From positions 54,488 to 118,487 of the forward strand of contig NZ_DEYP01000026.1 of NCBI RefSeq assembly GCF_002364615.1: a stretch of 64,000 bases of DNA, in the 5' to 3' direction. The notes beneath the pieces were generated by a model. The model worked only from the letters and a program-made list of their open reading frames with translations, did not search any database and had not been told where the DNA came from. Position numbers and translations under genes: made by a program. Below are positions 17,146 through 63,258 of this stretch, piece by piece (within the stretch, counting starts at the first letter, position 1; every line of letters begins with the position of its first letter). This DNA is from Arsukibacterium sp. UBA3155 (lineage in GTDB: Bacteria; Pseudomonadota; Gammaproteobacteria; Enterobacterales; Alteromonadaceae).

Positions 17146-17619
17146 ATGATTAAAACCGGCGACAAATTACCAGAAGTCAGTTTTTCACAACTGACCAAAG
17201 AAGGCGTAATGAACCCGACCACCAGCCAGATATTCGCGAATAAAAAGGTACTGATGTTTGCCGTACCAGGAGCGTTTACGCCTACCTGCTCTGCTGCCCA
17301 TTTGCCTGGTTATATTGCCCTGGCCGATCAAATTAAAGCCAAAGGCGTGGATACCATTATTTGTACCGCGGTAAACGATGCCTTTGTGATGAGTGCCTGG
17401 GGTAAAAGCCAGAATGCTGAGGAAATTGTGTTTTTAGCCGATGGCGGCGCGGCGTTTCATACTGCTGTTGGCCTGACCATGGAAACCGGCGATTTCGGTG
17501 GTGTGCGCTCGCAGCGCTACGCCATGCTGGTGGAAAATGGTGTGGTAACCCAACTGAACGTAGAAGCGCCGAAAACCTTTGAAGTCAGCAAAGCTGAAGT
17601 GATGTTAGCGGGGCTTTGA
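17146..17619 (+). CDS. Peroxiredoxin (Prx5/AHP1 type)
   Basis: VPGAFTPTCS peroxidatic motif, VNDAFVM, RSQRYAM. Confidence 0.95.
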   Translation: MIKTGDKLPEVSFSQLTKEGVMNPTTSQIFANKKVLMFAVPGAFTPTCSAAHLPGYIALADQIKAKGVDTIICTAVNDAFVMSAWGKSQNAEEIVFLADGGAAFHTAVGLTMETGDFGGVRSQRYAMLVENGVVTQLNVEAPKTFEVSKAEVMLAGL

Positions 17620-17643
17620 ACGTAGCTAATCATAGTTGAACTT

Positions 17644-17690
17644 TAATTTATAAGGCTGAGAATGTTTGTATCTGTCAGCCTTATAAATTA
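17644..17690. terminator. 16-bp perfect inverted repeat between the peroxiredoxin gene and the convergent cargo gene
   Basis: TAATTTATAAGGCTGA ... TCAGCCTTATAAATTA. Confidence 0.7.
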
Positions 17691-17717
17691 GTCTGCAAAA
17701 CTAAACCAGTAGTTTTG

Positions 17718-18209
17718 CTAATTATAAACACTGTAGCAATATCCTCCATGTTCATGAGCTTTTTTAGGGCCAACATAAACAAATTCACCACTTTGAGTTT
17801 CAGAGTCAAATTGAGGATAATAATTTTGTTTTCTACTGTAAGAATAATGTCCTGTGCCATATTGTAAATTTGCCCACGAGCAATCACGCGACATGGTGGG
17901 GTACGCTCGACCTCTGGAGACACAAAACCCGCCATGTCGGCGTGCATCCCAAGGACCAACATAGATCATATCCATCGCGGCACAAGATTGCTTATCCAAC
18001 GTATAAATAGCATCTAAGATAGGCATTAAAAACTGCGTGGGATTAATACATGATCCGCCATGCTCATGCGCTTTGTTCGGCCCCAGGTATAAACTTTCGG
18101 GTGGGCAGTTCCTTGATAAGGTATCCATTGAACTGGTTATACCCTGTGCATCTATATTAATGGAAGCAAAAAATACACATGTTAGGATTATCCTGTAAAT
18201 ATATTTCAC
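17718..18209 (-). CDS. Secreted hypothetical protein with three C...YxGPxxAxxHGGxC repeats
   Basis: Signal peptide, GTG start, AT-rich DNA; three internal repeats visible in the translation. Confidence 0.75.
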   Translation of the reverse strand: MKYIYRIILTCVFFASINIDAQGITSSMDTLSRNCPPESLYLGPNKAHEHGGSCINPTQFLMPILDAIYTLDKQSCAAMDMIYVGPWDARRHGGFCVSRGRAYPTMSRDCSWANLQYGTGHYSYSRKQNYYPQFDSETQSGEFVYVGPKKAHEHGGYCYSVYN

Positions 18210-18472
18210 CTAAATTCGCCTTATTTAAATTTTGATCTGGTTTTGTATATTACATGTAAATTCTGTGATTGGAAATTGATTTTATTGGTTTATTTAAAAG
18301 TTTTTTCTTAGAATTTTTAGATGCTTAACAGTATCACATAGTGACTGTCTTATTAAATATTGAGACTCGCTTAGGGTTTCTGCCCCAAGTACGAAATGAG
18401 TTCGGTGATCTAACGCGGACGTCGATACGCATCTTATTGCATGCTTACTCAGATAAAAGCGACATCTTACTT

Positions 18473-18631
18473 ACAGCTGTTGGCCTGAGCATGGAAACCG
18501 GCGATTTTGGCGGTGTGCGCTCGCAGCGGTACGCCATGCTGGTTGAAAATGGTGTGGTAACCCAACTGAACGTAGAAGCGCCGAAAACCTTTGAAGTCAG
18601 TAAAGCCGAAGTGATGCTGGAAGGATTGTAA
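18473..18631 (+). pseudogene. Second, 5'-less copy of the last 53 codons of the peroxiredoxin gene
   Basis: Aligns without gaps to 17461-17619; 16 mismatches in 159 bp by my count, only 2 amino acid changes (T>S, A>E). The sequence upstream in ORF 18341 is unrelated to Prx. Confidence 0.93.
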
Positions 18632-18698
18632 CAACCCGGCTAGTTGACCTCCGTATCGAGGTCATCTGGCCAGTTAAGGTGTCGGTCACCCGATTGGC

Positions 18699-19829
18699 TT
18701 AACAATGTTTACCATGGTGACCGGAGATAACGTTTTGGTATATATCTTCCAGTTTTTGACATTGCCGCCGGATATTAAAGTTTTGATTTACGTGGGTAAT
18801 ACCTGCTTGCGACAGCTGGGTGCGCAGCGCTGTTGATTGCAATACTGTCAATAAATTCTCTGCCAGTTGCGCGACATTTTTTTGCTCAGACAGTAATCCG
18901 GTTTTTTCCTGAACTACCCCTTCACCAACGCCGCCGGTATCGAATGCGACCACCGGTGTGCCAACAGCCTGAGATTCTACACATACCGTGGGCATGCCTT
19001 CTTCGTTTCCTCTGTCCATCACAATACTGGGCAGACAGGTTACCCATGCTTTTGACATCAGCTCTTTTACCTGCACTCTGTTTTGCGCGCCAGCAAAAGT
19101 AACATTGGTGACTTCATTCGCGAGTAGTTGCAGCTTGTCCTGATAGGAGCCATATCCTGCGATAATCAATTGGGCGTCGGGTAGCCGCTGATTAATAGTT
19201 TTCATCGCTTGTAACAAATACTGACAACCTTTTTGCTCTATTAGTCTGCCAACAAATAATATTGTTGGTTGTTCAAATCTCTGTGCTGCCGGAGCAAAAA
19301 ACTGGTTATCAATGCCAATATAATGCTGAATAATTTTATCTTCCGGACAGCCTCGGCTAAGTAATTTTCTTTTTATAAATTGTGATACTGCTATTATTTT
19401 TGCGGATTGTGCGAAGGTAATATGACGATGTTTACTGTTGAACGAAAATTTGTCTTTTTGAGTAACATCTGAGCCATGAAAAGTGGTAACCAGAGGCAGC
19501 TCGAGCTTTTTTGCAATGGGCGCGCAATAATAGCCGCCTTTACCAAAATGCGCGTGAATCACATCGGCGTGATTGGCAGCCAATGCCTTTTGCCATCTGG
19601 GTGTCAGTATCTGACAACTATCAAGTAACAGTCTGGATAGCACGGCCATGGGTTCTACATCCGCTTGCACGCAAGTCGCTTTACCCTCAATTAAATTAAT
19701 CCCCCCGCTATCGTTTCGAAGACCAATGTAAGTTGGTGAGAAACTGGGCAGGTTGTTGCCCTGTGCTGCAACAAAGGTGTTTGACCTTGGCAGCACGCGT
19801 TTGGTAAAAATAAGTACTTTTGATGGCAT
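18699..19829 (-). CDS. Glycosyltransferase family 4 (GT-B)
   Basis: DVIHAHF, TTFHGSD, ILFVGRL and EEGMPTVCVES (EX7E-like) motifs. Confidence 0.88.
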   Translation of the reverse strand: MPSKVLIFTKRVLPRSNTFVAAQGNNLPSFSPTYIGLRNDSGGINLIEGKATCVQADVEPMAVLSRLLLDSCQILTPRWQKALAANHADVIHAHFGKGGYYCAPIAKKLELPLVTTFHGSDVTQKDKFSFNSKHRHITFAQSAKIIAVSQFIKRKLLSRGCPEDKIIQHYIGIDNQFFAPAAQRFEQPTILFVGRLIEQKGCQYLLQAMKTINQRLPDAQLIIAGYGSYQDKLQLLANEVTNVTFAGAQNRVQVKELMSKAWVTCLPSIVMDRGNEEGMPTVCVESQAVGTPVVAFDTGGVGEGVVQEKTGLLSEQKNVAQLAENLLTVLQSTALRTQLSQAGITHVNQNFNIRRQCQKLEDIYQNVISGHHGKHC

Positions 19830-19838
19830 ATTACGTAA

Positions 19839-20765
19839 TTACTTATTAATAAGTGCCGATTTAATCCGGCGAATGGTTTTACGAATAACGGACACCTTAC
19901 TATCTTCCTTGTAACGGCCTTTTTCAGCATGGCGGATAAGCAGTAAGTTTGGCAGCGCTATCGGCACACCCTGGGTACCCAATAACCAGCGTACTGCCCG
20001 ATCTTCATAGGTTTTGGTCCAGTGGTACTTTGGTTTCTGGTATACCGCTAAATCGTCACAATAACCGCAGTTGCGCGCCACTTCGCCGTGAATAATCTGA
20101 ATAGCGCCGGTGGCCCGGTCAAATTTACGCGGTTTGAACTTGGTTTTATCCACTTCCAGCAATTCGGTTTTGTCTTTGCCGGCAGAGATCATCGGGTCGG
20201 CTTCCGTCAGCAGTGGGGTGACCAGCAGGGTATCGGGAAATAACAGAATTTCCTGCCGACCTTTAAGTAGCTGCTCCAGGGTGTCCAGACAGTTTTCATG
20301 AAATACCATATCGCAATCGGCAAACCACACCCAGTCAGCTTTAGTCTCTTTTGCCGCGCGGTTGCGGCCAATGGCCCGTCGCAGCAACAAGGGTGTTGCT
20401 AAAGGCTGAAAATTCCACTCGATATTAGGTACTGACAGCGTTTGAAAATGCTCCAGTAGTTTTGCAGTTGCCTGGTCTTCTTCAGAATAGAACACGGTAA
20501 AGCGCACCTGCATTGTCGTTGGTGGATACTTCACCAAGGAGCTTAACTGATAGACAAAAAAGCGGGCGTAGTTCCAGCAATGGGTAACAATTTCCAGCTT
20601 TATATTGTCGTGCACAACTGGCAAATCGGTTTTAACGGGTTGGTTTTTAATAAAGGCTGTGGCCGGAAAGTAGCCAGAGGCGGCGAAGCGCAATAACAGT
20701 TCTTTGACGTTATCCAGTGCGCTGGCTTTTGCTGGCAGGTTATTTTCTGGTTTGGCTGCGGTCAT
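19839..20765 (-). CDS. GT-A fold (family 2-like) glycosyltransferase
   Basis: GRNRAA followed by the WVWFADCD DXD motif; in the LPS cluster next to waaA. Confidence 0.75.
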   Translation of the reverse strand: MTAAKPENNLPAKASALDNVKELLLRFAASGYFPATAFIKNQPVKTDLPVVHDNIKLEIVTHCWNYARFFVYQLSSLVKYPPTTMQVRFTVFYSEEDQATAKLLEHFQTLSVPNIEWNFQPLATPLLLRRAIGRNRAAKETKADWVWFADCDMVFHENCLDTLEQLLKGRQEILLFPDTLLVTPLLTEADPMISAGKDKTELLEVDKTKFKPRKFDRATGAIQIIHGEVARNCGYCDDLAVYQKPKYHWTKTYEDRAVRWLLGTQGVPIALPNLLLIRHAEKGRYKEDSKVSVIRKTIRRIKSALINK

Positions 20766-20932
20766 GCATAACTCCGGCGTTACGGTTAGCGGGTTAAACC
20801 GGCTATAAAGGCAAAAAGTTTAGCATTAAAGGTTGGGTCAAAACAGATTCTTTTGGTGTAGCAGGCTTATATTTGGCATCATAGCGGCTTTAGCCTGTAG
20901 GGGCGACATTTGCGTTTACACAGGAAGTTATT

Positions 20933-22960
20933 ATGGCCAAGGCGTTAAGCCGCTGTGCTTACCAGCTGTTATTGTATCTGGGTTTGCTGCCATTGCTGGG
21001 CTATCTGCTCTGGCGTTCAGTGCGCGATGTGCGCTATCGCCAGCGACTGGCCGAGCGCTTTGGCTGGCTTTCTGCCCAAATTCAGGCCGGCGGTATTGTG
21101 GTGCATGCGGTATCGGTTGGCGAGGTTATCGCTGCGCTACCGTTAATTAAGCAGTTGCAACAGCAATATCCGAACCAGCAGCTTACGGTTACTTGCACCA
21201 CCCCTACCGCTAGCGCAATTATCAAAAGCCGGCTGGGTGATTCTGTTCAACACTGTTATTTACCCTTCGATTACCCCGGCGCCATAGCCCGGTTTATTAA
21301 ACACTTGCAGCCGCAGCTTGTTGTTATTCTGGAAACGGAGCTTTGGCCCAATTTACTTAGGCAATGCTACAAAGCGCTGATCCCTACCGTACTGGTTAAT
21401 GCCCGTTTATCAGCGCGTTCCGCCAGGGGCTATCGGCGCTTTGCCTGGCTTACCCTCCCTGCATTGCAGCAGATAAGCTTATTACTGGCACAGGATAGCG
21501 CCAGTGCCGGTCGGTTCCGGGCATTAGGCCATAGTAACGTACAGGTAACGGGCAATTTAAAATTTGAGATGCGCTTGCCGGATAACCTGGCAGCCACCAG
21601 TAGCCAGCTATCACCCGCATTAACCGACCGGCTGGTTTGGGTAGCGGGCAGCACCCACGAAGGCGAAGATGAGCAGCTAATAGCCTTATACCCTCAGCTT
21701 AAAAAACAATTTAGTAATTTATTGCTGGTACTGGTACCGCGCCACCCGGAGCGTTTTAATAAGGTGGCCACTCTGGCTACTCAGGCCGGGCTGCAGTTAT
21801 GGCGGCGAAGCGCCGGCGGTGCGCCAACGGCTTACACTGATGTGGCACTGATTGACAGCATGGGTGAGTTACTAGCCTGGTACCAGCAAGCCAGCCTGGT
21901 ATTTATTGGCGGCAGTTTAATTAAACGGGGCGGCCACAACCCGTTAGAGGCAATATGTTTTGCTAAAGCGGTACAAACCGGGCCGCATTATTTTAATTTT
22001 GCCGATGCTTATAACCAGCTGGCTCAACGACACGCCGTTAGCATCATCCAAAATGCTGAACAGTTAGCTGCCAATGCCGCTGCGCTGCTGGCTGATACCG
22101 TTATGCGCCAGCAGCAAGGCGAGCGGGCTTACCAGTTTTTCCAGTCACAGCAAGGCGCAGTAAAGCGCAGCAGTATGGCCATCGCCGACCTGTGTGGGGA
22201 TAGCCTTAGCAACGTGCAGCGCCAGACTGCCGGCAACGAATTATATTGGTTTCGCACCGATCTGTTCGACAACATAAGCGCTGCGCAGTTTGACCCTACC
22301 TGGTGGCAGCAACAGCAGGCGGTAACCGGCAGCTCGACCGGCCGCAACACGGCGTGGTTTATCAGACATACTCACCAGGAGCGCCAGCATCAGCTGGTAT
22401 TGCGCCATTATTATCGCGGTGGCCTGGCAGGCAAAATTAACAAAGACCGGTTCTTCTACCAAAGTGCCTTGTATAGTCGTGCTATGCAGGAATTCAGCTT
22501 GCTGCAATGGATGCGTCAGCAAGGGTTAGCCGTACCAAAACCGGTTGCGGCCCGCTATCTGCGTACCGGCGTAAGCTACCAGGCAGACTTACTGATAGAG
22601 CGGATAAGTGACGCCCGCGATCTGGCGACTATATTACATCGTGACCGTGCCCTTACTGATAGTGAATGGCAGGCGGTTGGCACCACCATCGCCCGTCTGC
22701 ATCAAGCGGGGGTAGACCATACCGATCTCAACTGCCGTAATATTTTGCTTGATAACGACGGTAAGGTATGGCTAATTGATTTTGATAAATGCCGGCGTCG
22801 GCAGCCGGGCAATTGGCAGCAACAAAATCTGCAACGGTTATTGCGATCCTTGCATAAAGAGCGCGCAAACCTGACGCCTTTTCACTGGCAGGAGCTTGCC
22901 TGGAAAAATGTTATTAATGCTTACCAGCAACAGAAAAAGCCGTTAAACCCGCATAAATAG
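20933..22960 (+). CDS. waaA: Fusion of Kdo transferase (WaaA/KdtA) and Kdo kinase (KdkA)
   Basis: N-terminal ~420 aa: HAVSVGE, ETELWPN, GSTHEGE, VPRHPERF, GGHNPLE. C-terminal ~245 aa: LRHYYRGG, HTDLNCRNIL, LIDFDK, NLQRLLRSL. One uninterrupted 675-aa ORF. Confidence 0.92.
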   Translation: MAKALSRCAYQLLLYLGLLPLLGYLLWRSVRDVRYRQRLAERFGWLSAQIQAGGIVVHAVSVGEVIAALPLIKQLQQQYPNQQLTVTCTTPTASAIIKSRLGDSVQHCYLPFDYPGAIARFIKHLQPQLVVILETELWPNLLRQCYKALIPTVLVNARLSARSARGYRRFAWLTLPALQQISLLLAQDSASAGRFRALGHSNVQVTGNLKFEMRLPDNLAATSSQLSPALTDRLVWVAGSTHEGEDEQLIALYPQLKKQFSNLLLVLVPRHPERFNKVATLATQAGLQLWRRSAGGAPTAYTDVALIDSMGELLAWYQQASLVFIGGSLIKRGGHNPLEAICFAKAVQTGPHYFNFADAYNQLAQRHAVSIIQNAEQLAANAAALLADTVMRQQQGERAYQFFQSQQGAVKRSSMAIADLCGDSLSNVQRQTAGNELYWFRTDLFDNISAAQFDPTWWQQQQAVTGSSTGRNTAWFIRHTHQERQHQLVLRHYYRGGLAGKINKDRFFYQSALYSRAMQEFSLLQWMRQQGLAVPKPVAARYLRTGVSYQADLLIERISDARDLATILHRDRALTDSEWQAVGTTIARLHQAGVDHTDLNCRNILLDNDGKVWLIDFDKCRRRQPGNWQQQNLQRLLRSLHKERANLTPFHWQELAWKNVINAYQQQKKPLNPHK

Positions 22961-23075
22961 CGCTTTGTCGCAGTTTTTGCCTGTGGTTTTACCATTATTT
23001 AACGCTTATATAATGGATTAAGCTGTTGGTGTCTTAGTTGAACTTTGGTATAACTATGGCAGCGGAGGGGCATCT

Positions 23076-25313: not shown

Positions 25314-25359
25314 ATAATCGCCGCCCACAACGGGCTTATTACGACACCAGCAACAATAA

Positions 25360-25387
25360 AAACAGGGCGCCGATCGGCGCCCTGTTT
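25360..25387. terminator. Bidirectional terminator (perfect 28-bp palindrome)
   Basis: AAACAGGGCGCCGATCGGCGCCCTGTTT between convergent genes. Confidence 0.8.
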
Positions 25388-25411
25388 ACGCAAGCTCAAT
25401 CACGAAAACGA

Positions 25412-27153
25412 TTAAGGATTGTAAGCGACCACCAGGTTAACACCTGTGAAGCTACTGTATGCACGAATACTGACATGCCAGGTATCCGCTACCGGATTAC
25501 TAAAGCTGCAGTTTTCATTATTGCCCTCTAAGTAGGGGCGGCAGTCAAAGGTAGTTGTAGTTGGCCTGGCACCGCGGCGCACAAATAAATCAGCATCACC
25601 AGTACCCCCGGAGATCGTTGCTGACAACGTCTTCATGCCTGTTGGTACTGTTATGGTGTAATGTAACCAATTGTTTGTTGTAGCCGATAGGTTAGTAACG
25701 GTACCGCCGCCACCGGCCGCCGGCATGGCTGCCGTAACGGCAGCATTAGCATCAACAATACCCGTGCCACAGCCGCTGCAACTTGCTGGGAAGCTGCGAC
25801 TGGAAGTTTTCAGGATAGTTTCAATTTCGTCTGGTGTGGCAGAGGGCTTAACCTGCTTAATCAGTGCCGCAACGCCCGCGACATGCGGCGCGGCCATGGA
25901 GGTTCCCTGACTATATCCATAGCTATCAGAGCCGGGCGTTGTGCTGCCCGTATTGTAAGTTGATAGTACACCATTTGGATCATTCGCCGAGGTCATTTGA
26001 CCGCCAGGCGCTGCTACATCTATGTTGGTGCCAAAGTTTGAGTAACTGGCGCGGCCACCTTGCCTATTAGTGGCGGCAACATTTACGACGCCGCTACAAT
26101 TACCGGGGTTATAATTAGTTGAATTGTCATTACTATTGCCGGCAGCTATTACTACTACCGCGCCAAGGCCACGCGCCTGGTTAATGGCATTTTGTGTGGT
26201 CGCACTACAGGCACCGCTGCCGCCCAGGCTCATATTAATTACTTTTGCCGGGTTCGCATTAGCAGGTACACCAGATACGCTTCCTCCCGCAGCCCAGATA
26301 ATACCGTCGGCAATATCAGAGGTATAGCCACCACATTTACCTAATACTCTTACCGGCACAATTTTTGCGTTGTAGGCAACGCCAGCCACGCCGCGGTTAT
26401 TATTAGTTACTGCCGCTATGGTGCCAGCTACATGGGTACCATGCCAGCTAGAGGCGCGGAAAGAAGTGGGTTGACCATTGCCACACTCACCTGCATTGGT
26501 CCAGTCGCCGTTATCACGGGCATCACTATCACGACCGTTGCTATCGTTACCAATAAAAGCGTCTGAAATCATGTCATAGCCAGGTAGCAGATTTGCGTTT
26601 AAATCAATATGCGGCCGGTAGCCAGTATCCAGTACGGCAACAACGACCCCCTGGCCCGTTGCTTTATCCCATGCGGCTGGTGCCCGCAGGCCGCCGGTGG
26701 TTTCAGAGTAATGCCACTGGCTGGTGTAACTGGTGTCGTTAGGTGTAAACGCCGTTTGCATTAAGACGTCTTCTTCGACAAATTCTACTTCGTCATCAGC
26801 GGCCAGTTGCTCGAGCATCGCTGTAGTTTCGCTTTTAGAAAGCTTTCTGCTGGCGCCATAAACGGCGTGACGTTTTAGCGCGGTCTCTTTGACAAAGCTG
26901 ACTCGTTCGCCGGCCCGATCACTGAAGCGTTCAGCTTTTCTTTTTAATTTTTCTGCCCGACGTTGCTCACGGATTTTTAGTGGTAATTGACCGGTATCAC
27001 TGTCGGTTTCAACATATTTAACAATAAAGCGGGTCACCGGGTCACCGGGCCATCGGCATAGTCGATGGTTTCTTCAGCTTGCAAGTTACTGCAAAACGCA
27101 ACCGGTAAACACAATAAAGCAAGGCGACTTAATTTAAATGTACGGAATTTCAT
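25412..27153 (-). pseudogene. S8 subtilase with C-terminal PPC domain, frameshifted by an 8-bp tandem duplication
   Basis: Triad VLDTG, HGTHVAG, GTSMAAPH in ORF 25412-27037. The signal-peptide ORF from ATG 27153 (MKFRTFKLSRLALLCLP...) stops at 27034-27036 because GGGTCACC is duplicated at 27031-27046; removing 8 bp gives a 578-codon frame. Confidence 0.88.
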
Positions 27154-27502: not shown

Positions 27503-29821
27503 TTAAGGCTTATATTCTACAACCAGTTTTAAACCGCTAAAACTGCTGTATGCGCGCAAACTGACATGATAAACAGCCGCTTGCGGATTACTGAAGCTGC
27601 AACTTTCGTTGCTACCGTTTTTATATGGCCGGCAGTCATAAGTGGTTGTTGTAGGCTGGCTGCCTCGACGCACATATAAATCGGCATCGCCGGTACCGCC
27701 AGAGCTGGTTGCTGTTAATGAGCTCATGCCAGCAGGAACCGTAATAGTGTAGTGTAACCAGTTACCTTTAGTCGCGCTCAGATTTTCTAAAGTACCGCCA
27801 CCGCCAGTACTGCCGCCGCCAGCAGGTGCAGTATAATCGGCCACCAGCGACATACCTGCGTAAGCACTGTAACCGCTGATCATGACATGGTAAACACCAG
27901 CCTGAGGCGTGGCAAAGCTACAGTTTTCTGCATTACCGCCTTTATAAGGACGGCAATCGTAGCTTGACGTGGTTGGCTGGCTGCCAAAGCGCACGTATAA
28001 ATCAGCATCGCCGCTGCCACCTGACATATTAAAGCTCAGGTTGCTAGCACCAGCCGGCACGGTAATAGTGAAATAAGTTGCAGAGCCGGTAGCACCAGTC
28101 AGGTTGGTTTTAGCAACCGCTTTTTCCAGCTCGTTGCCAGACGGTGGTGGTGGGGTGGTGCCGCCGCCAGTACCAGAACCATCACAGCCTTGCTGGTTGA
28201 TATAGTCATATGCGGCTTTCGCGCGCACCAAGCCGAAACCATAAGAATTATCACGACCCGCTGCACCAAGATCCTCAGCGGTAACGGCTAATACATTACG
28301 GATTTGAGCATTGGTACATTGCGGGAAGTGGCTCCATACCAGTGCGGCCATACCGGCAACATGTGGCGATGCCATAGACGTACCGCTCATCAGGCCGTAG
28401 TTGCTGGCGCCAGAGCTGACGAAGGTTGTTTGCCCCAACCGACCTTGTAATGCCTGACCGACAGCTTGGGTTACGGCAAGGGCTGGAATGGTTGTACCAG
28501 GGTTATCACCCAGAGTGCCACCAAAATCGCCCGTGGTGTTGTTATAAATGATCGCTGCTAAACCGCCGCCATTTTCGCAAGATTGTACTTTTTGTACAAA
28601 ACTGACGCTGCCACGTTCAATCAGACAGATTTTATTGGCGACACTGGCACACGTGGTGTCACCCAGGCCACAATTAGCTAGAGCAGCATTAGCACTGCCG
28701 TCGCTGGAGTTGGTCATTGGCGAGCTTTCATAGTTCGTAGTGCCAACACTCAGAATGGCTTCAAGGCCGGTACCTTCAGGGTAGGTAGAGCGGATATCCA
28801 CACCCGGCGCTGCCAGTTCCACCTGAGTATTGCGCTGTGAGAAATCAGCTAATACTTTGTTTTTATCGATAGCGGCAACTGAAATAACCGAATTGTATGA
28901 CGCCGGATACGACATCACCGTATTACCGTCGTTACCCGCCGCAGCAATCAGCAGTACGCCTTGATCAAAAGCCGCTTGCATCGCGTTGCTTTCAGTAGTG
29001 TTAGCACCACCACCACCTAAACTCATGTTGATAACGGTAGAGCCATTAGAAACACAGGTATTTACTGCATTAGCCAGCGTAGAGCTGTAGCCCCAACCTT
29101 CTTCGTTAAATACTTTAACAATATGCAACTTTACGTTGCCGTTTGGCATTACACCGACCATACCGGTGCTGTTATTTAGTGCGGCAATAGTGCCTGCAAC
29201 ATGAGTACCATGCGGACCGCCGTTATCAAACCAGTTGCCGGTACCTGCATCGTTGGTACCGGTAATATTACCGGTTAAGAAATCTTCGTGTGGTAAGTCT
29301 AAACCTGAATCGATAATACAGACTTTCTGATTAGAGGCGAACTGGTCACTGACCTGGTTTGCCTGAACCATAGTGTAGCCATAAGGAATTTGCTGTGCTA
29401 ACAGGTGGCGTTTATAATCTTCCTCAACCAGTTCAACACTGCTGTCGGCCTGCAATTCAATCAGGGCGGCATCGTCCAGCTCAACGGCGATAGCTGACTG
29501 CGCTGCCAGCATCATTTTAACTTTGCCGCCGCGCTGTGCCAGCTTTTCAGATTTACGTTCCAGATTATATAACCGGCGCGCGTTGGCGTTAGTGGAGTAT
29601 AGCCCAGGGCCCGTCTGCTCCATGCTCTGTTGCTTATACCTGACGATATAGCGTTTGGCATTTTGTGAATTGTCAGCTGCGTTAGCTTTGGCATTTTTGG
29701 GATGGGCGTTGGCAAACAGACGCGGCTGGTTGTCATCAGCCATTAAAGTGGGCGTCATAAGTATACTGGCTGGTATACATAGCAGGGCAAGCTGGCTAAG
29801 TTTAAATTTGGGTTTATACAT
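27503..29821 (-). CDS. S8 subtilase with I9 propeptide, PA domain and two PPC domains
   Basis: IIDSG, HGTHVAG, GTSMASPH triad; PA insert (CLIERGSVSF); two GGSGDADLYV-type PPC domains; ATG 29821 gives a signal peptide. Confidence 0.92.
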   Translation of the reverse strand: MYKPKFKLSQLALLCIPASILMTPTLMADDNQPRLFANAHPKNAKANAADNSQNAKRYIVRYKQQSMEQTGPGLYSTNANARRLYNLERKSEKLAQRGGKVKMMLAAQSAIAVELDDAALIELQADSSVELVEEDYKRHLLAQQIPYGYTMVQANQVSDQFASNQKVCIIDSGLDLPHEDFLTGNITGTNDAGTGNWFDNGGPHGTHVAGTIAALNNSTGMVGVMPNGNVKLHIVKVFNEEGWGYSSTLANAVNTCVSNGSTVINMSLGGGGANTTESNAMQAAFDQGVLLIAAAGNDGNTVMSYPASYNSVISVAAIDKNKVLADFSQRNTQVELAAPGVDIRSTYPEGTGLEAILSVGTTNYESSPMTNSSDGSANAALANCGLGDTTCASVANKICLIERGSVSFVQKVQSCENGGGLAAIIYNNTTGDFGGTLGDNPGTTIPALAVTQAVGQALQGRLGQTTFVSSGASNYGLMSGTSMASPHVAGMAALVWSHFPQCTNAQIRNVLAVTAEDLGAAGRDNSYGFGLVRAKAAYDYINQQGCDGSGTGGGTTPPPPSGNELEKAVAKTNLTGATGSATYFTITVPAGASNLSFNMSGGSGDADLYVRFGSQPTTSSYDCRPYKGGNAENCSFATPQAGVYHVMISGYSAYAGMSLVADYTAPAGGGSTGGGGTLENLSATKGNWLHYTITVPAGMSSLTATSSGGTGDADLYVRRGSQPTTTTYDCRPYKNGSNESCSFSNPQAAVYHVSLRAYSSFSGLKLVVEYKP

Positions 29822-30222
29822 GAATACACTCTTATTGTTTATAGTAATTATCATTTCCTGGATTGGGATGACCGCATATTGCAAATCAGCAATAACATCA
29901 AAGTTACTATTATCCAAAATGTAACTAAGTGTAAATGCGTGAATTAGTGACAACTGTTAACAGCTGAGCTTGGTAAAGTAGAGCGTTTCTAAAAAAGGGC
30001 TATTTTATTTTTGGCGAAATAAGCAACAAGCCAACTACAGCGGGCCAGCTCGCCGTGCGATAGATGACAATTAAGGTGTTGCTTTATAATTTAAAGTTAT
30101 TAGTTAGCAGTAAAATTCATAAGCGGTGGTGTGATAGCCCTACAATTAAGTTCACGTTTGCCAATTGCATATGACGCGCCTGTCACCGACAATAGCGTTT
30201 TTTTGTAAAAGAGCTTTTTAGC

Positions 30223-31404
30223 ATGCAGCAGTGGGATGTAATTGTAATAGGTGCCGGTGCGGCAGGCCTGATGTGTGCTATTGAAGCTGGCAAGCGCGGT
30301 CGCAGTGTCCTGGTGCTGGATAACGGTAAACGGGTAGGCCGGAAGATCCTGATGTCGGGCGGCGGTCGTTGCAATTTCACCAATATGTATAGCAGCCCGG
30401 AAAACTTTCTGTCGCAAAATAAGCATTTTTGTAAGTCAGCGCTTAGCCGTTACACCCAGTGGGACTTTATTGCCCTGGTGCAAAAGCATGCCATTCCCTA
30501 TCACGAGAAAACCCTGGGCCAGCTATTTTGTGATGATTCTGCCAAAGATATTGTTGAAATGCTGCTGAAAGAGGCGAAAGCGGTCAATGTGCACATTGCG
30601 CTGCAGCAAAGCATCACCGGCGTCGGCTTTGGCGATGGTCAATACACTGTTACCACCGCAGAGCTAAGCCGGCAGTGTCACAGTTTAGTTGTTGCCAGTG
30701 GTGGTTTAAGCCTGCCCAATTTAGGCGCTACTGCTTTTGGTTTTCAGCTGGCCGAGCAGTTTGGTTTAAAAGTCCTGCCCCTGCGCGCTGCGCTGGTGCC
30801 GCTAACCTGGCAACCGAGTGACAAAGCAATATTTGAGGAAATCAGTGGTGTATCGCTGCCAGTAACAGCCGAAGCGAATGGCACCTTGTTCCCCGAGGAT
30901 ATGTTATTTACCCACCGCGGCTTAAGCGGGCCGGCGATATTACAAATTTCCAGCTACTGGCAACCCGGCGATCCGGTCATTGTGAATATGTCGCCCCAAA
31001 CCGACATTGGCGAATTTCTGGCGGCGCAGCAGCAAGCGCATCCGGAGCAGGAGGTCAAAACCGCGCTGGCTAAACTATTACCGAAACGCTTAGTTGAAAA
31101 ACTGCTGGAGCTGCAGGTTTTTACTAATCAGCCGTTAAAAGCACTTAATAATAAAAGCATTAAACAAATCGCCGACAGCCTGCATGGTTATCTGTTTAAA
31201 CCCAATGGCACCGAAGGTTACCGCACGGCAGAAGTGACCATTGGTGGCGTTGATACCGATTATTTATCCTCGAAAACCATGGAAGCAAAACAGCAACCTG
31301 GTTTGTATTTTATCGGCGAAGTGGTCGACGTCACCGGCTGGTTGGGCGGCTATAACTTTCAATGGGCCTGGGCCAGTGGCTGGGTTGCCGGGCAGTACTG
31401 TTGA
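30223..31404 (+). CDS. yhiN: HI0933/YhiN/BaiN-family flavoprotein
   Basis: GAGAAG, KILMSGGGRCNFTN, FTHRGLSGP, GGYNFQWAWASG. Confidence 0.92.
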   Translation: MQQWDVIVIGAGAAGLMCAIEAGKRGRSVLVLDNGKRVGRKILMSGGGRCNFTNMYSSPENFLSQNKHFCKSALSRYTQWDFIALVQKHAIPYHEKTLGQLFCDDSAKDIVEMLLKEAKAVNVHIALQQSITGVGFGDGQYTVTTAELSRQCHSLVVASGGLSLPNLGATAFGFQLAEQFGLKVLPLRAALVPLTWQPSDKAIFEEISGVSLPVTAEANGTLFPEDMLFTHRGLSGPAILQISSYWQPGDPVIVNMSPQTDIGEFLAAQQQAHPEQEVKTALAKLLPKRLVEKLLELQVFTNQPLKALNNKSIKQIADSLHGYLFKPNGTEGYRTAEVTIGGVDTDYLSSKTMEAKQQPGLYFIGEVVDVTGWLGGYNFQWAWASGWVAGQYC

Positions 31405-31551
31405 AGTTACATAATATCGTGTCACACCATGCCTGAAAAAAGCACTTCTACAATAGTTGACTATAATAGTCGCTGCAGTGTGCCTTCGCCGTTTACATAT
31501 GAAGTCTCTTAATTCAGTTGTTGTTAGTTAAATTCATAAAAAGGAATCATT

Positions 31552-32469
31552 ATGAAAAACATCTTAAAAAGGTCGACTTTAGTTGTAGCTGTATCAATGC
31601 TGTTATCGTCACAAGCCATAGCAAACCCCTCAACCACTATTGAACTTATTGAATATCCTGGAGCGGAAAATACCCAGGCGTGGAGCATCAATAGCAAAGG
31701 TGAAGTCGTTGCATCATCAGCGGTAAGCTTTATTTATGATCGCAAGTCCGGCGGTGTCACAGAGATTGACACCCCTGTTGGATACGAGAATTTAGCTGTT
31801 TTTGCTACTTCGGAGTCTGGTGATAAAGTTGGCTCAGCAATTGACGTAAATACCGGCCGCACGGTCGGTGTTTTTATTGATAAAAAAGGTAATGTCGATA
31901 CCTTTGAACATCCCGACTCTAATGGTTTTACCCAAGCAAGGGCAATGAACAGTAAGGGTATGATTTCGGGTTTCTATTTTGATCAGAATTCCGGTGAAAG
32001 CTACGGATTTCTTTATGACCGGAAAAATACCGCCTTTACCACGATTGTTGAGAGCGCTTTTACTATTTCACAGGGCATAAATGCCTCAGGACAGACAGTA
32101 GGAAGTGCAATATTTTTAGAGAACAACCCCTGTGATCCTGCATCGCCTTTTGCCCGCTACGCTTGGGTCCGCAATCCTTCCGGTGATGTGATGTATTTTA
32201 ACATTGAGGGCTTTCAATCCGCAGCCAGAGGTATTGCCAGCAATGGCACTATCGTCGGCTTTTATTTTGACAATGAAGGGCCTAAAGGATTTAAGATTGC
32301 AACGCCAAAGACACAGTGCGCTACTATTACGTTGGAAGAAGGAGAGCGGGTAAATATTCCGGATGCAATCGGCACTTATCCACAGTATATTTCAGATAAC
32401 GGTAAAAACATTGTTGGTCAATTTATTACTGAAGATCAAAATTTTGTTGGTTTTGTAATAGGTAAATAA
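31552..32469 (+). CDS. Secreted repeat protein, probable beta-propeller (HAF-like repeats)
   Basis: Signal peptide; recurring AxxINxxGxxVG units (AWSINSKGEVV, ARAMNSKGMISG, SQGINASGQTVG, ARGIASNGTIVG, QYISDNGKNIVG); AT-richer than its neighbours. Confidence 0.75.
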   Translation: MKNILKRSTLVVAVSMLLSSQAIANPSTTIELIEYPGAENTQAWSINSKGEVVASSAVSFIYDRKSGGVTEIDTPVGYENLAVFATSESGDKVGSAIDVNTGRTVGVFIDKKGNVDTFEHPDSNGFTQARAMNSKGMISGFYFDQNSGESYGFLYDRKNTAFTTIVESAFTISQGINASGQTVGSAIFLENNPCDPASPFARYAWVRNPSGDVMYFNIEGFQSAARGIASNGTIVGFYFDNEGPKGFKIATPKTQCATITLEEGERVNIPDAIGTYPQYISDNGKNIVGQFITEDQNFVGFVIGK

Positions 32470-32481
32470 GCAACCAACCAA

Positions 32482-32514
32482 GTGGTTGGATAGGTCATCC
32501 TGCTATCCAACCAC
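32482..32514 (+). terminator. Hairpin after the propeller gene
   Basis: GTGGTTGGATAG-9 nt-CTATCCAACCAC. Confidence 0.6.
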
Positions 32515-32521
32515 ATAACGC

Positions 32522-32584
32522 CTTACACCTAATGGTACCGGGAGTTACTTACCACTGAGTGAGGTAGCCGGGCGGTATTGTTAA
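32522..32584 (+). pseudogene. Decayed, internally deleted copy of the yhiN 3' end
   Basis: 32522-32548 matches 31195-31221 at 20/27 nt (LTPNGTGSY vs FKPNGTEGY); 32563-32584 matches 31383-31404 at 18/22 nt (VAGRYC* vs VAGQYC*). Confidence 0.72.
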
Positions 32585-32655
32585 TTTTACAAAACCGGGT
32601 AGATATTACAGACAATTCTGCCGGGTTTTTCTCTGCCACAAACTGTTTATTAACG

Positions 32656-49719: not shown

Positions 49720-49742
49720 CCGGCAGCAAGTGGTGTGACACA

Positions 49743-55561: not shown

Positions 55562-55613
55562 TAACCTGATAATTTTAAACGCGTAGGCGTGAATAACCAT
55601 AGGAAACCTCGAT

Positions 55614-58280: not shown

Positions 58281-58291
58281 GGGGATAACTG

Positions 58292-60016: not shown

Positions 60017-60022
60017 AACCGG

Positions 60023-60051
60023 ATTACGCCAGCAAAAACTGGCGTAATTTT
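60023..60051 (+). terminator. Intrinsic terminator after aceF
   Basis: ATTACGCCAG-caaaaa-CTGGCGTAAT-TTT. Confidence 0.75.
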
Positions 60052-60137
60052 CGATTGATAGCACAATCAATGGTTACAGAGCGGCGGCTCTGATGTTAAA
60101 ATTCCGCCACTTTTTTCGCCTGATAGCCTCAATCCAT

Positions 60138-60260
60138 TATTCTATGGATTTCGAAGTGCACGTAGGCGGCAAGCAAGCGAGTCCCCATGAGCTTAGGTTA
60201 GCTAAGTGATTGGGGTGAGCGGTGCAGCCAACACCCGTGCAATTTGAAATACGATGGATA
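60138..60260. repeat. ERIC-like (enterobacterial repetitive intergenic consensus) element, about 123 bp
   Basis: Internal AGGCGGCAAG...CCCCATGAGCTTA...TAAGTGATTGGGGTGAGC...GCAGCCAAC core with central inverted repeat and imperfect terminal inverted repeats (ATTTCGAAGTGCACG / CGTGCAATTTGAAAT); closely resembles the ERIC consensus as I recall it. Confidence 0.82.
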
Positions 60261-60310
60261 ATAATGCTGTCAGAACACCGGGAAAACCGGACAATTATGA
60301 AGGTAATACG

Positions 60311-61723
60311 ATGAGCAACGATATTAAAACTCAGTTAGTAGTCGTGGGCGCAGGCCCTGGCGGTTATTCTGCAGCCTTTCGTGCAGCAGATTTAGGTTTA
60401 GAGGTTACCCTGGTTGAAGCGCGCAGCACCTTAGGTGGCGTATGCTTAAACGTTGGCTGTATTCCATCTAAAGCCTTGTTACACGTTGCCAAGGTTATTG
60501 ACGATGCCCATGATATGGCGTCGCACGGCGTTACCTTTGGTGAGCCAAAAATTGATTTAGACAAAATCCGTGACTGGAAAGACAAAGTTGTCGGCCAGTT
60601 AACCAATGGCCTGGGCGGCATGGCGAAAATGCGCAAAGTTAAGGTAGTTAACGGTTTCGGTAAATTTACCGGTGCTAACACCTTACAGGTTGGCGACACC
60701 AAAATTACCTTTGAACACGCCATTATTGCTGCAGGTTCAGAGCCGGTATCACTACCGTTTATTCCAAAAGATGACGACCGGGTTATCGACTCTACCGGCG
60801 CGCTGGAATTAAAAGACATTCCGGGTGAAATGCTGGTGTTAGGTGGCGGTATTATCGGCCTGGAAATGGGCACCGTTTATCGTGCACTGGGTTCTAAAGT
60901 ATCGGTAGTGGAATTTGCTGATCAGTTAGTACCAGCAGCCGATGCTGACTTAGTAAAAGCCTATACCAAGTACAACAGCAAAAAATTCAACATTATGCTG
61001 TCGACCAAGGTAACCAATGTTGAAGCGAAGAAAGACGGTTTATACGTCACCTTTGAAGGCAAAAACGCACCGGATAAAGCGGTACGTTACGACAAAATTC
61101 TGGTGGCAGTGGGCCGTAAGCCAAACGGTAACCTGTTAGACGCTAAAAAAGCCGGTGTTGACGTTGATGATCGCGGCTTTATTAACGTGGATAAGCAACT
61201 GCGTACCAACGTTAAACACATTCACGCCATTGGTGATGTTACCGGCCAGCCGATGTTAGCGCACAAAGCGGTACACGAAGGCCATGTAGCGGCTGAAGTG
61301 ATCTCTGGCATGAAGCACTACTTCGACCCACGCTGCATTCCATCAGTAGCATATACCGACCCGGAAATGGCCTGGACCGGCATTACCGAGAAAGAAGCGA
61401 AAGAGCAGGGCGTAAAAGTAGAAACCGCGACCTTCCCATGGGCAGCATCAGGCCGTGCCATCGCCTCAGCCCGTACTGAAGGTTTCACCAAGCTGATATT
61501 CGACAAAGAAACGCACCGCATTCTAGGTGGCGCCATTGTCGGTATTAACGCCGGTGAAATGCTGGGCGAAATCTGTTTAGCAGTAGAAATGGGTGCCGAC
61601 GCTGAAGATATCGCGTTAACCATCCACGCTCACCCAACCCTGAACGAGTCTATCGGCTTAGCTGCCGAAATCTACGAAGGCTCAATCACTGATTTGCCAA
61701 ACCCGAAAGCGAAGAAAAAGTAA
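60311..61723 (+). CDS. lpdA: Dihydrolipoamide dehydrogenase E3
   Basis: GAGPGG, GGVCLNVGCIPSK, HAHPTLNE; ATG 60311 (MSNDIKTQ) preferred because the ORF start 60254 lies inside the ERIC-like element. Confidence 0.98.
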   Translation: MSNDIKTQLVVVGAGPGGYSAAFRAADLGLEVTLVEARSTLGGVCLNVGCIPSKALLHVAKVIDDAHDMASHGVTFGEPKIDLDKIRDWKDKVVGQLTNGLGGMAKMRKVKVVNGFGKFTGANTLQVGDTKITFEHAIIAAGSEPVSLPFIPKDDDRVIDSTGALELKDIPGEMLVLGGGIIGLEMGTVYRALGSKVSVVEFADQLVPAADADLVKAYTKYNSKKFNIMLSTKVTNVEAKKDGLYVTFEGKNAPDKAVRYDKILVAVGRKPNGNLLDAKKAGVDVDDRGFINVDKQLRTNVKHIHAIGDVTGQPMLAHKAVHEGHVAAEVISGMKHYFDPRCIPSVAYTDPEMAWTGITEKEAKEQGVKVETATFPWAASGRAIASARTEGFTKLIFDKETHRILGGAIVGINAGEMLGEICLAVEMGADAEDIALTIHAHPTLNESIGLAAEIYEGSITDLPNPKAKKK

Positions 61724-61744
61724 TTTTTCTGGGTTTTAGATAAA

Positions 61745-61774
61745 ACAAAGGCCGCAAATGCGGCCTTTGTTGTT
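61745..61774 (+). terminator. lpdA terminator, copy 1
   Basis: ACAAAGGCCGC-aaat-GCGGCCTTTGT followed by TGTTT. Confidence 0.88.
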
Positions 61775-61854
61775 TCTGGTTGAGATGTTTTCAAATAATA
61801 AACATTGTGTTAATCTTTTTGTTCGATAACAAACATGCAAAAAGGATTAGCACA

Positions 61855-62295
61855 ATGCTGGTTCAGTTCAGTAAATTATGGAAAAACCACCCGTACCCTA
61901 ATTTTCCCTGTGACAGAGGATTGTTCGCAAACCAATGTGCCATTCGTATGGGGGTAGCGTTAGAACTATCTGGTGTTGATACCTCCAGCTTTGACACCAA
62001 ATACCCACAGAGACGTTGCTACCCTGGTTTAAACCACAGCCCGCGACATATTCTGGCAGCGCAAGAGCTGGCCAATTGGCTTGATGATGCTGGCAACAAC
62101 GCATTCGGCAGCAAAAGAGTGATCAGAGGTGGTGCGCTTGAATCCCTCAAAGGCAAGAAAGGCATCGTTTTTATAATGAACGGCTGGGACAGCACGGACC
62201 ATATCGACTTATGGGACGGTGAAACTCTTAAAGGTGGCGCTCCCGATTGGTTAAATAAAGGAGACGAAGTATGGTTTTGGGAAATTACAGTGTGA
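61855..62295 (+). CDS. Tae4-like type VI secretion peptidoglycan amidase effector
   Basis: NQCAIRM (catalytic Cys, NxCAxR) and DHIDLWDG (catalytic His), both typical of Tae4; no signal peptide; ATG 61855 after AAGGA. Confidence 0.78.
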   Translation: MLVQFSKLWKNHPYPNFPCDRGLFANQCAIRMGVALELSGVDTSSFDTKYPQRRCYPGLNHSPRHILAAQELANWLDDAGNNAFGSKRVIRGGALESLKGKKGIVFIMNGWDSTDHIDLWDGETLKGGAPDWLNKGDEVWFWEITV

Positions 62296-62705
62296 TCCGT
62301 CTCGTTTCTCTGGCTGCTATTCTGGCTGTGACTTCATGTGCTCAGGCCGATATCAGTGTTAATTCTGCCAACGATGTCTGTAAGGTAACAAGCGATGGCA
62401 AGAGCTATGAATTACAGCTTACGCCGCCATGTAGCCTGGTTAAGGTCGATTACAAAGATCACGACTATTTTCAGTACTACGACAGCAAGGTATACATAGT
62501 AGCGGGCAAACCGGCACCGCTAGCGCAGTTGGCTAAATGGTCTGTTACTGAAGCGGATAATTGCTCATTGCAATCGCAGGCGGTAATTGTCAACGCGGGT
62601 AAAATGCATCTGTCTGATGTTCGGCAAGATGCGTTGACCTGCCCAGAAATTGGTCTGGATGAAAAAGTATACCGGGATTACTTCGATAATATGATGACTA
62701 AGTAG
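62292..62705 (+). CDS. Hypothetical lipoprotein, candidate immunity protein
   Basis: GTG start overlapping the effector stop (GTGA); lipobox LAVTSC; four further Cys. Confidence 0.72.
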   Translation: MIRLVSLAAILAVTSCAQADISVNSANDVCKVTSDGKSYELQLTPPCSLVKVDYKDHDYFQYYDSKVYIVAGKPAPLAQLAKWSVTEADNCSLQSQAVIVNAGKMHLSDVRQDALTCPEIGLDEKVYRDYFDNMMTK

Positions 62706-62707
62706 GC

Positions 62708-63085
62708 ATGAAAATCAGGGTAGCATTAACGGCATTTATTCTGATGATTGTCATCTCGGGCATAACTAAGGCCGATATGGCGTTTAAACAGCAAAAGGAA
62801 CTAAAGCTGTTTCAGCATTATGCCCAGGCCAGTTGTTTAGCCACGGCTTTTAGCGATGGCGATATTCACCAGCAAGCAATAAGTGCATTAAACGGTTACC
62901 GCGAGTTTGGTGCCATGCCACTGGAGGCGTATCAGGAACTGGCAGAGCCAATGCAGCAATGGCTTAAAAAAGATTACGCCATGAAAGCTGGCAAGCAAAA
63001 TAACCTGATGAAGTGTATTGATTTTGCAGAGTCAGAGATCGTAACAAAAATCTATCATGGCTATGCTGACAAGGCTAAAAGCTAG
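62708..63085 (+). CDS. Tai4-like periplasmic amidase immunity protein
   Basis: Signal peptide, about 125 aa helical protein with YAQASCLATAF and LMKCIDF, the two-Cys pattern of Tai4/Rap proteins. Confidence 0.7.
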   Translation: MKIRVALTAFILMIVISGITKADMAFKQQKELKLFQHYAQASCLATAFSDGDIHQQAISALNGYREFGAMPLEAYQELAEPMQQWLKKDYAMKAGKQNNLMKCIDFAESEIVTKIYHGYADKAKS

Positions 63086-63093
63086 AGAAAAGT

Positions 63094-63258
63094 GAAATCT
63101 GCTTAGCGGTAGAAATGGGGGCCGACGCTGAAGGAGTCTATCGATTTAGCCGCCGAAATCTACGAAGGCTCAATCACCGATCTGCCAAACCCGAAAGCCA
63201 AGAAAAAGTAATTTTCTGAGTGTTAGGTAAAACAAAGGCCGCAATTGCGGCCTTTGTG
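63094..63258 (+). pseudogene. Second copy of the lpdA 3' end and its terminator, with a 38-bp internal deletion
   Basis: Matches 61568-61770; lacks 61608-61645 (flanked by CTGAA repeats); substitutions mostly at third codon positions; terminator ACAAAGGCCGC-aatt-GCGGCCTTTGT at 63232-63257. Confidence 0.93.

Follow-up and report, generated by a model that had tools for sequence, protein, structure and literature searches.

How do small sets of genes come to be lodged between an intact gene and a second, headless copy of that gene's own 3' end? The question is raised by a 64,000-nucleotide stretch of Arsukibacterium sp. UBA3155 (contig NZ_DEYP01000026.1, positions 54,488 to 118,487; hereafter the window), a metagenome-derived assembly with 49% GC and 45 sizeable open reading frames (ORFs). 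A preliminary description of the sequence had claimed that three genes, encoding a peroxiredoxin (Prx), the flavoprotein YhiN and LpdA, are each followed by cargo genes and then by a copy of their own last codons. We confirmed the tail copies at Prx and lpdA; at yhiN the claim holds in part, in that the interval proposed there (32522-32584) does not align as a whole and the segment that does align is 32552/32563-32594. Two solid cases and a weak one among about 45 genes make a striking number, although all three lie at pre-existing hotspots. For Prx and lpdA, we consider it reasonably probable that a foreign cassette was captured through a homologous anchor, with homology on one side only.

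We compared the window with itself by BLAST at E<0.01 and scored the tail of each gene against its own downstream 4 kb. The tail scores were 97 for Prx, 92 for lpdA and 19 for yhiN, and the other approximately 40 genes gave background scores of 10-17; one further score of 50 corresponds to a paralogous protease domain and not to a tail copy. We also fetched loci of relatives (169 loci, 1.4 Mb), which are designated here by L-numbers; L001 and L002 are two further copies of the window's own genome region. The best matches of the window's lpdA are from Arsukibacterium spp. (96-98% identity at the amino acid (aa) level), followed by Rheinheimera and Alishewanella. The Prx locus is composed as follows.

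17146-17619, plus strand: intact peroxiredoxin gene (Prx), 157 aa, Redoxin/AhpC-TSA (Pfam, on the same gene in L001)
17460-17619, plus strand: proximal tail copy, the last 160 nucleotides (nt) of the intact gene; colinear with the cargo side of L172
17620-18471: cargo segment, 852 bp, 37% GC
18472-18631, plus strand: distal headless tail copy, 160 nt with its own stop codon; colinear with the L170/L171 flank
18699-19829, minus strand: family 4 glycosyltransferase (GT4), 376 aa (Pfam); resident right flank

The two Prx tails remain in frame up to both stop codons (17619 and 18631) and are identical at 144 of 160 nt and 51 of 53 residues; self-BLAST aligned 17460-17604 with 18472-18616 at 94.5% (E 2e-59). 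The 16 differing positions comprise 13 synonymous and two non-synonymous changes in the 52 codons compared, and one change within the stop codon (TGA/TAA). Homologues of Prx match at 97-100%. The cargo contains a bidirectional terminator hairpin (17644-17690) and a minus-strand gene (17718-18209), the remainder being the AT-rich upstream region of this gene. The encoded protein (163 aa) is of a secreted, cysteine-rich type with three GPxKAHEHGGxC repeats, and it had no Pfam or NCBIfam match. The gene caller of the Joint Genome Institute (JGI) placed a 93-aa ORF in another frame over the same gene. Additionally, a 96-aa GTG ORF (18341-18631, plus strand) reads through the displaced Prx tail and is annotated in the metagenome as 'Redoxin, weak'; this call is most likely a pseudogene fragment and not a protein.

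The lpdA locus has the same architecture, with a longer cargo.

60254-61774, plus strand: intact lpdA with terminator; ORF from 60254, conserved start MSNDIK at 60311, stop at 61723
61568-61774, plus strand: proximal tail copy, the last 156 coding nt and a 51-nt terminator region (207 nt)
61775-63093, plus strand: cargo, 1.3 kb, 45% GC, three genes
61852-62295, plus strand: Tae4-family amidase effector (PF14113, 1.2e-16)
62271-62705, plus strand: 144-aa lipoprotein-like protein (p144)
62708-63085, plus strand: Tai4-family immunity protein (PF16695, 1.1e-8)
63094-63261, plus strand: distal headless tail copy with terminator, starting 8 nt past the Tai4 stop and carrying a 38-nt internal deletion
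63288-63959, minus strand: p223, a family-less protein of 223 aa; resident right flank

Self-BLAST aligned 61568-61607 with 63094-63133 at 92.5% and 61634-61774 with 63122-63261 at 89.4%, the overall identity of the two copies being about 84-90%, with eight synonymous differences and one non-synonymous difference. The copy extends approximately 51 nt beyond the stop codon, through the terminator hairpin, and the deletion in the distal copy is frameshifting and lies between CTGAAG/CTGAAC repeats. The spacer after the distal terminator (63250-63262) is also short of about 40 nt relative to L004 (6508-6560), between TTTGT(T/G)G repeats; judged from this alignment, the loss appears to be a second slippage-type deletion beside the 38-nt one. 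At its other end, the lpdA ORF can be extended by 19 codons 5' of MSNDIK (60254-60310); the DNA there is conserved in L003 and L004 and most relatives start at MSNDIK, so that the true start is uncertain. All cargos are AT-richer than the window, as had been described, with 37% GC at Prx, 42% at yhiN and 45% at lpdA against 49%. The accompanying statement that most cargo proteins are exported stands for four of five, which have signal-peptide-like or lipoprotein-like N-termini as judged by eye, without a predictor; the fifth is the Tae4 effector, a substrate type of the type VI secretion system (T6SS).

The differences between the copies are mainly synonymous at both loci (13:2 at Prx and 8:1 at lpdA), in agreement with the preliminary description. 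Synonymous divergence (pS) and non-synonymous divergence (pN) between the proximal and distal copies are 0.333 and 0.017 at Prx (binomial 9e-7 if changes were random over sites) and 0.324 and 0.011 at lpdA (binomial 3.5e-5 on the same assumption). The copies therefore diverged while they were parts of working genes, as a dead fragment could not gain such a pattern in place. The pS of the copies equals that between the window genome and other species of the genus, which is 0.27-0.38, and therefore one allele of each pair came from a sister species. This upholds the earlier view that each solid copy was once the end of a relative's working allele, since a pS of about 0.33 with a pN of about 0.01-0.02 is the between-species level. 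The apparent later decay amounts to just two or three changes and one deletion, and the capture events are therefore recent relative to the divergence of the copies. Synonymous divergence is almost equal at the two loci (numbers are small), which would agree with a single donor species or a single period of exchange.

The same divergence bears on a simpler explanation, in which the gene tail was duplicated in tandem in situ before the cargo was inserted, or in which an assembler merged two strains. Direct tandem repeats are a generic product of slippage or unequal crossing-over, the sequence comes from a metagenome assembly, and the k=31 assembly graph breaks at a 56-nt core that is identical between the Prx tails. 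However, a non-functional duplicate would change at all codon positions, in place of the ratios given above with their synonymous divergence of about 33%, and the lpdA copies do not group with each other, the distal copy being nearer to L005 (86%) than to the proximal copy (84%). Simple tandem duplication is ruled out by the synonymous bias. As for the assembly, the same structure is present in the JGI assembly, in a metagenome-assembled genome (MAG) at NCBI and in Logan contigs of other runs; a Tara Oceans metagenome contig (Ga0211677_10000006) matches the window at 100% identity and the MAG (GCA_002685395.1) at 99.96%. Depths along the Prx locus are 74.4 in the flank, 163 over the shared 56-nt core, 78 in the cargo and 74.3 in the other flank, therefore the cargo is single-copy with a two-copy core. 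The lpdA locus lies within a single 51-kb contig of depth 74. Assembly collapse is excluded by the agreement of three independent assemblies and by the single-copy depth of the cargo, and we regard this explanation as effectively refuted in both of its forms.

Comparison with relatives demonstrates that the architecture is not fixed, and that both empty sites and alternative cargos exist. In L170 and L171 the Prx site is empty: the Prx tail is followed by a spacer, GT4 (87-88% aa identity) and a 308-aa gene, without cargo, and window positions 18472-21096 are colinear with these loci at 82-84% (L170 reverse complement 234-2865 at 82%). In L172, a Rheinheimera-like relative, the site is occupied: a 158-aa homologue of the cargo protein (L172 reverse complement 3985-4461) is kept directly 3' of Prx and is followed by 540 nt and GT4, without a second tail, and the window is colinear with this locus from rsmJ via Prx into the cargo. 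L083 and L084 have neither the Prx cargo nor a tail copy. At lpdA the empty site is represented by L004, in which lpdA and its terminator are followed by a p223 homologue (87% aa identity); window positions 63122-64000 are colinear with L004 6372-7281 at 88%. Occupied sites are found in L003 and L006. In L003, lpdA is followed by a different Tae4-family effector, Tai4 (75% aa identity), a 35-44-nt copy of the lpdA terminator (score 27, null maximum 13) and a flank as in L005; the gene tail is not duplicated here, and the terminator copy is the only repeat of the cassette. In L006, from Rheinheimera, a lipoprotein and Tai4 (68% aa identity; 7037-7471) lie 3' of lpdA, with no Tae4. A second lpdA tail was found in 0 of 80 lpdA loci from other species. 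From these alignments, the window appears to join two parental arrangements in tandem, the proximal copy with the cassette and the distal copy with the resident flank.

The relatives also correct the earlier view of the loci, which are not ordinary places: all three were variable hotspots beforehand. Between Prx and the conserved 308-aa gene lies a slot, next to waaA (Kdo transferase), that holds three unrelated genes across relatives: GT4 in the window, L170, L171 and L172, a GT2 in L083 (6501-7406), and an unannotated 293-aa protein in L084 (4536-5417). The Prx 3' end therefore looks, on gene content, like the left border of a replacement hotspot for lipopolysaccharide-core glycosyltransferases. 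Behind lpdA, Tai4 is present in three species (68-75% aa identity) with a different partner each time (window 61852-63085, L003 6603-7513, L006 7037-7471), which looks like turnover of the effector with retention of the immunity gene. L005 (A. tuosuense) carries a Phd/YefM antitoxin and a YafO toxin directly 3' of lpdA (6575-7287), and L003 carries an antitoxin alone (7675-7968) 3' of its Tae4/Tai4 cassette. By this comparison the lpdA 3' flank is a variable hotspot that holds toxin/immunity and toxin/antitoxin modules in several species.

The junctions follow the limits of homology. The right edge of the duplication coincides with the end of between-species homology, which is the stop codon at Prx and the end of the conserved terminator at lpdA, and the left edge of the lpdA duplication abuts the cargo, 8 nt past the Tai4 stop. 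The coding lengths duplicated are 160 nt at Prx and 156 nt at lpdA, and the position of the lpdA junction varies, being -156 in the window and the terminator in L003. The junctions have lost no recipient sequence in comparison with L170/L171 and L004; the tail is duplicated instead. We found nothing above shuffled controls when looking for sequence common to the junctions or ends of the three cargos, or for terminal inverted or direct repeats within each cargo. An apparent joint (X6), considered as a junction, proved to be a match between the two palindromic terminators. The last approximately 30 codons of Tai4 (63040-63085) are weakly colinear with the lpdA tail (61630-61723), and likewise L003 7433-7516 with 6386-6470 (p~0.01-0.03 against shuffles); this similarity might mark an earlier scar of the lpdA tail that became fused to Tai4, or have arisen by chance in what is the conserved Tai4 domain, and we treat it as unproven.

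These observations can be accommodated by the following course of events. The donor would be an Arsukibacterium-like species in which the cassette already lay directly 3' of the same conserved gene. A fragment with the donor gene tail and the cassette would enter the cell. Homologous recombination of the RecA type would pair the donor tail with the resident gene, and the recipient would offer no partner for the other end of the cassette. Integration could then be completed in two ways. Either the fragment recircularised and entered by a single Campbell-type crossover inside the tail of approximately 160-200 nt, or a linear fragment crossed over in the gene while its other end joined illegitimately within the resident tail, that is, by homology-facilitated illegitimate recombination (HFIR). 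Both routes would yield a gene ending in the donor tail, followed by the cassette, the displaced resident tail and the resident flank, and the displaced tail would afterwards decay neutrally. The anchor for such an event is visible: coding conservation stays at 90-100% from the gene into the proximal tail without interruption. Directly observed are the duplication, the foreign and selection-shaped divergence of the copies, the two parental arrangements in relatives and the lack of mobility genes; the route of DNA entry, the dependence on RecA and the circular or linear state of the intermediate are inferred.

Precedents exist for both routes. In Escherichia coli, when homology was provided on one side, recircularised DNA had integrated by a single crossover in 56 of 60 integrants, with 109-950 bp of the gene end duplicated, and four arose by HFIR (PMC3240628). 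Two features of Campbell-type integration are found in our loci: direct repeats flank the insert (160 nt at Prx, 207 nt at lpdA), and both parental arrangements occur in relatives (L170, L171 and L004; L172, L003 and L006). As in this insertion-duplication (Amarir-Bouhram et al. 2011, PMC3240628), foreign DNA lies between direct duplications of a gene end (109-950 bp there, 160-207 bp here) and host recombination suffices. That system is a plasmid construct in an E. coli laboratory strain, whereas here the setting is natural, the anchor is homeologous (about 10% diverged), the donor is a sister species, the event is known from sequence alone, and the cargo consists of secreted-protein and toxin/immunity genes. 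HFIR has been reported in Acinetobacter, S. pneumoniae and P. stutzeri (summarised in PMC3240628 and PMC5361080), and it has been proposed for displaced 3' remnants, effector and orphan immunity genes at T6SS and Rhs loci (PMC5361080). Our loci share with HFIR one homologous anchor, a putative illegitimate junction and the lack of mobility genes; they differ in that the classical form deletes recipient DNA, whereas here the recipient tail is kept, so that the join would fall inside the homologous region of the anchor. The earlier proposal of a single crossover by a small circle thus names a documented way to this product, but one that is not distinguishable from linear HFIR; the more general claim that the events were integrase-free and driven by homology is supported. 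The mechanism belongs to a known class and involves no new principle; the loci are a natural example of it.

Several points weigh against capture by one-sided homology. In Logan assembled contigs of public runs neither circle junctions nor empty-site junctions were seen, one form being present. No conspecific genome without the insert was found, so neither the immigrant copy nor the type of the upstream gene body, which should be that of the donor under HFIR and that of the resident under a circle, is assignable. The junction sequences were read, and microhomology at the putative illegitimate join would show only against the donor sequence beyond it. Classic HFIR insertion comes with a deletion of recipient DNA, not with a duplication (PMC3240628). 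A donor of the L172 type has GT4 beyond its cargo and would therefore offer homology on two sides.

The symmetry of the architecture also admits the mirror image of this event, which is a variant of one-sided homology and not a separate mechanism; the data, which fit the circle route and linear HFIR alike, may fit it too. In the mirror image, the recipient already possessed the cassette, and what entered was the distal block (foreign tail with GT4 or p223), anchored in the right flank and joined illegitimately on its left just past the cassette. Both parental arrangements are present in relatives, the slot to the right of Prx is a hotspot of replacement whose gene differs among three relatives, GT4 and p223 have a GC3 as low as the cargo (41% and 34%), and a toxin/immunity cassette would be kept by selection. 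Outgroup distances do not decide which tail is foreign, as all outgroups are other species. Against this variant, the incoming block would bring 160-207 nt of homology to the resident tail, and a two-sided replacement that removes the cassette would be far more frequent. In addition, pS against L084 is 0.33 for the Prx head, 0.37 for the distal tail and 0.49 for the proximal tail (small numbers), which weakly suggests that the head and the distal tail belong together. We also made a sliding identity plot along lpdA for a mosaic breakpoint. Overall, we judge the mirror-image event unlikely.

Insertion at gene 3' ends is otherwise a familiar habit of site-specific integrative elements, and the loci could be remnants of such elements, or satellites mobilised in trans, with the integrase lost or encoded elsewhere. 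The anatomy of e14 at icd in E. coli K-12 (Hill et al. 1989; PMC13626634) is alike: icd runs into the element, which supplies the gene end, and a displaced C-terminal pseudogene, icdC, lies at the far end with mainly synonymous differences. In the additive flexible genomic islands of Alteromonas (Lopez-Perez & Rodriguez-Valera 2016, PMC4898812), which are likewise marine gammaproteobacterial hotspots with cassettes shared across species, each cassette addition is marked on its 3' side by a repeat of the target, a partial tRNA. The similar coding lengths of our two duplications (160 and 156 nt) also count for this explanation. However, no integrase, transposase or recombinase domain was found among the 45 window ORFs or within 10 kb past either end, as the preliminary description had stated for the immediate neighbourhood, and neither tRNA genes nor Rfam families were found in the window. 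As the cargo reaches within 8 nt of the distal copy, a deletion that removed an integrase would need to stop exactly at the repeat. The three loci have no common sequence at junctions or cargo ends, the shifting lpdA junction (-156 in the window, the terminator only in L003) leaves no fixed core of an attachment (att) site, and occupied L172 and L006 have no detectable second copy. Among the 80 lpdA loci and the related Prx loci there was no second tail and no integrase-bearing island within 5 kb. Unlike our loci, with inserts of 0.85-1.3 kb, no recombinase within at least 10 kb and variable junctions, e14 is 15 kb long, encodes an integrase and an excisionase of its own and uses a fixed att site. 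The Alteromonas islands differ in having mostly tRNA/tmRNA targets and in being ascribed to site-directed or illegitimate recombination, whereas our loci have protein-coding targets and, as the repeat, a diverged allele.

A connection to mobile elements is found at the third locus, yhiN, whose features are the following.

30223-31404, plus strand: intact yhiN, 393 aa, BaiN/RdsA-family flavoprotein (Pfam HI0933_like)
31405-32551, plus strand: cargo segment, about 1.15 kb, 42% GC
31552-32469, plus strand: secreted repeat protein of 305 aa in the cargo, no family match
32482-32514: hairpin in the cargo
32552-32594, plus strand: decayed yhiN 3'-end remnant, core 32563-32594 (...VAGRYC* vs VAGQYC*), reaching about 10 nt past the stop

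The remnant aligns at 25 of 32 nt without gaps (32563-32594) or over 43 nt with one gap (from 32552), with the stop codons aligned. It is below BLAST detection at E<0.01; it is nevertheless the top match of the yhiN tail on both strands of the window (128 kb; score 19, runner-up 16), and it lies on the same strand within the 190-nt spacer directly 3' of the cargo gene. From 32571 on, the remnant and the spacer on the AsmA side are common to L166 and L167, whose cargo differs, therefore the yhiN scar is older than the present cargo. We take the remnant as real but old, and it is far shorter than the Prx and lpdA copies. The locus is probably a third case of an imported cassette between a gene and a copy of its tail. 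The remnant itself may derive from one-sided homology, from an old att site or from something else: its shortness and age preclude an assignment to the mechanism proposed for the other two loci, and it sits at a known Tn7-like attachment site, which counts against an explanation by one-sided capture.

The yhiN 3' flank differs in every relative examined, and an empty yhiN-AsmA site was not found among them. It is the attachment site of Tn6230-type Tn7-like transposons (PMC11406308, PMC10121019). In L164 (6183-10683), a Tn7-like element with genes for a TnsA-like protein, TnsB, TniB/TnsC and a further ORF starts 4 nt past the yhiN stop, and its end has two tandem ACAATAAAGTTTGC(C/T)C(G/A)TAA repeats; by its position and gene content, this element appears to be a Tn6230-type insertion at the published site. 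The hotspot, its occupation in L164 and the length of the yhiN repeat (32-43 nt), which is the size of an att site, speak for the site-specific explanation at this locus. Unlike L164, the window has no tns genes (tnsA/B/C, tniQ), relics of Tn7 ends (TnsB sites) occur at chance level in the window with none in the yhiN cargo, and a Tn7-type insertion does not duplicate 30-40 nt of a gene tail. Taken over the three loci, remnants or satellites of site-specific elements are a possible but rather unlikely source.

Two further natural systems resemble one-sided capture in the window. Insertion with long target duplication (Nobusato et al. 2000; Furuta et al. 2010, PMC2853133), described by the Kobayashi group, concerns small gene sets between variable direct repeats of 46-423 bp that are single-copy in the empty-site genome. 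As in our loci, the repeats exceed 30 bp, no mobility genes are present, some repeats overlap gene 3' ends, and the cargo is often an addictive module. The cargo there is restriction-modification and the repeats are mostly near-identical, as in a true target duplication; those tabulated range from 93% (384/412) to 100%, for example 417/423, 388/397 and 44/46 nt (PMC2853133). In contrast, the repeats here differ by 6-11%, nearly always synonymously (90% identity at Prx, about 84-90% at lpdA), and this near-restriction to synonymous changes means that one of the copies came in together with the cargo. The T6SS effector-immunity displacement arrays (Kirchberger 2017) follow a similar logic with Tae4/Tai4 cargo, Tai4 being kept (75%) beside a different Tae4 in L003; their anchor is vgrG or the 5' part of an effector, whereas here it is lpdA, and no T6SS structural gene was seen in the window. 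The loci differ from each of the natural classes in one respect, which is the lack of an integrase, the foreign repeat or the housekeeping anchor.

The preliminary description had extended the three cases into a genome-wide habit. No further tail copies were found in 20 kb of added flank (10 kb per side), and self-BLAST of the 169 loci detected no further tail-copy architecture except in L001 and L002, the other matches being paralogues or domain repeats within a gene. That a system operates genome-wide is unproven. In its broadest form, the claim is that this lineage, and perhaps many marine gammaproteobacteria, routinely shuttles tiny units of gene tail and cargo, using housekeeping 3' ends as integrase-free docking sites throughout the genome; we find this quite improbable. 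The steps that it would require, in which units are excised by recombination of the two tail copies that flank them and then enter other species through nothing but homology, are very doubtful. That pS is equal at Prx and lpdA (0.33 and 0.32) would be in line with repeated traffic out of a single donor species.

If capture by one-sided homology is the correct reading, the Prx and lpdA loci are clean natural records of gene gain from a sister species with a partner on one side only, a process well known from the laboratory and rarely documented in wild genomes. The scar it leaves, a headless tail whose differences are almost all synonymous, is easily searched for, gives the evolutionary distance of the donor and provides an approximate date for the event. 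Counting these scars over whole genomes would measure the share of the 'flexible genome' that entered without integrases or transposases. On the practical side, the displaced Prx tail had been entered by a gene caller as a protein of 96 aa ('Redoxin').

The repeats detected by self-comparison also include one of a different kind. Two adjacent subtilisin-like S8 proteases (25412-27037 and 27503-29953, minus strand) have in common a C-terminal PPC-domain repeat of approximately 260 nt (72%), which recurs inside the larger of the two genes and accounts for the third-strongest self-match of the window.

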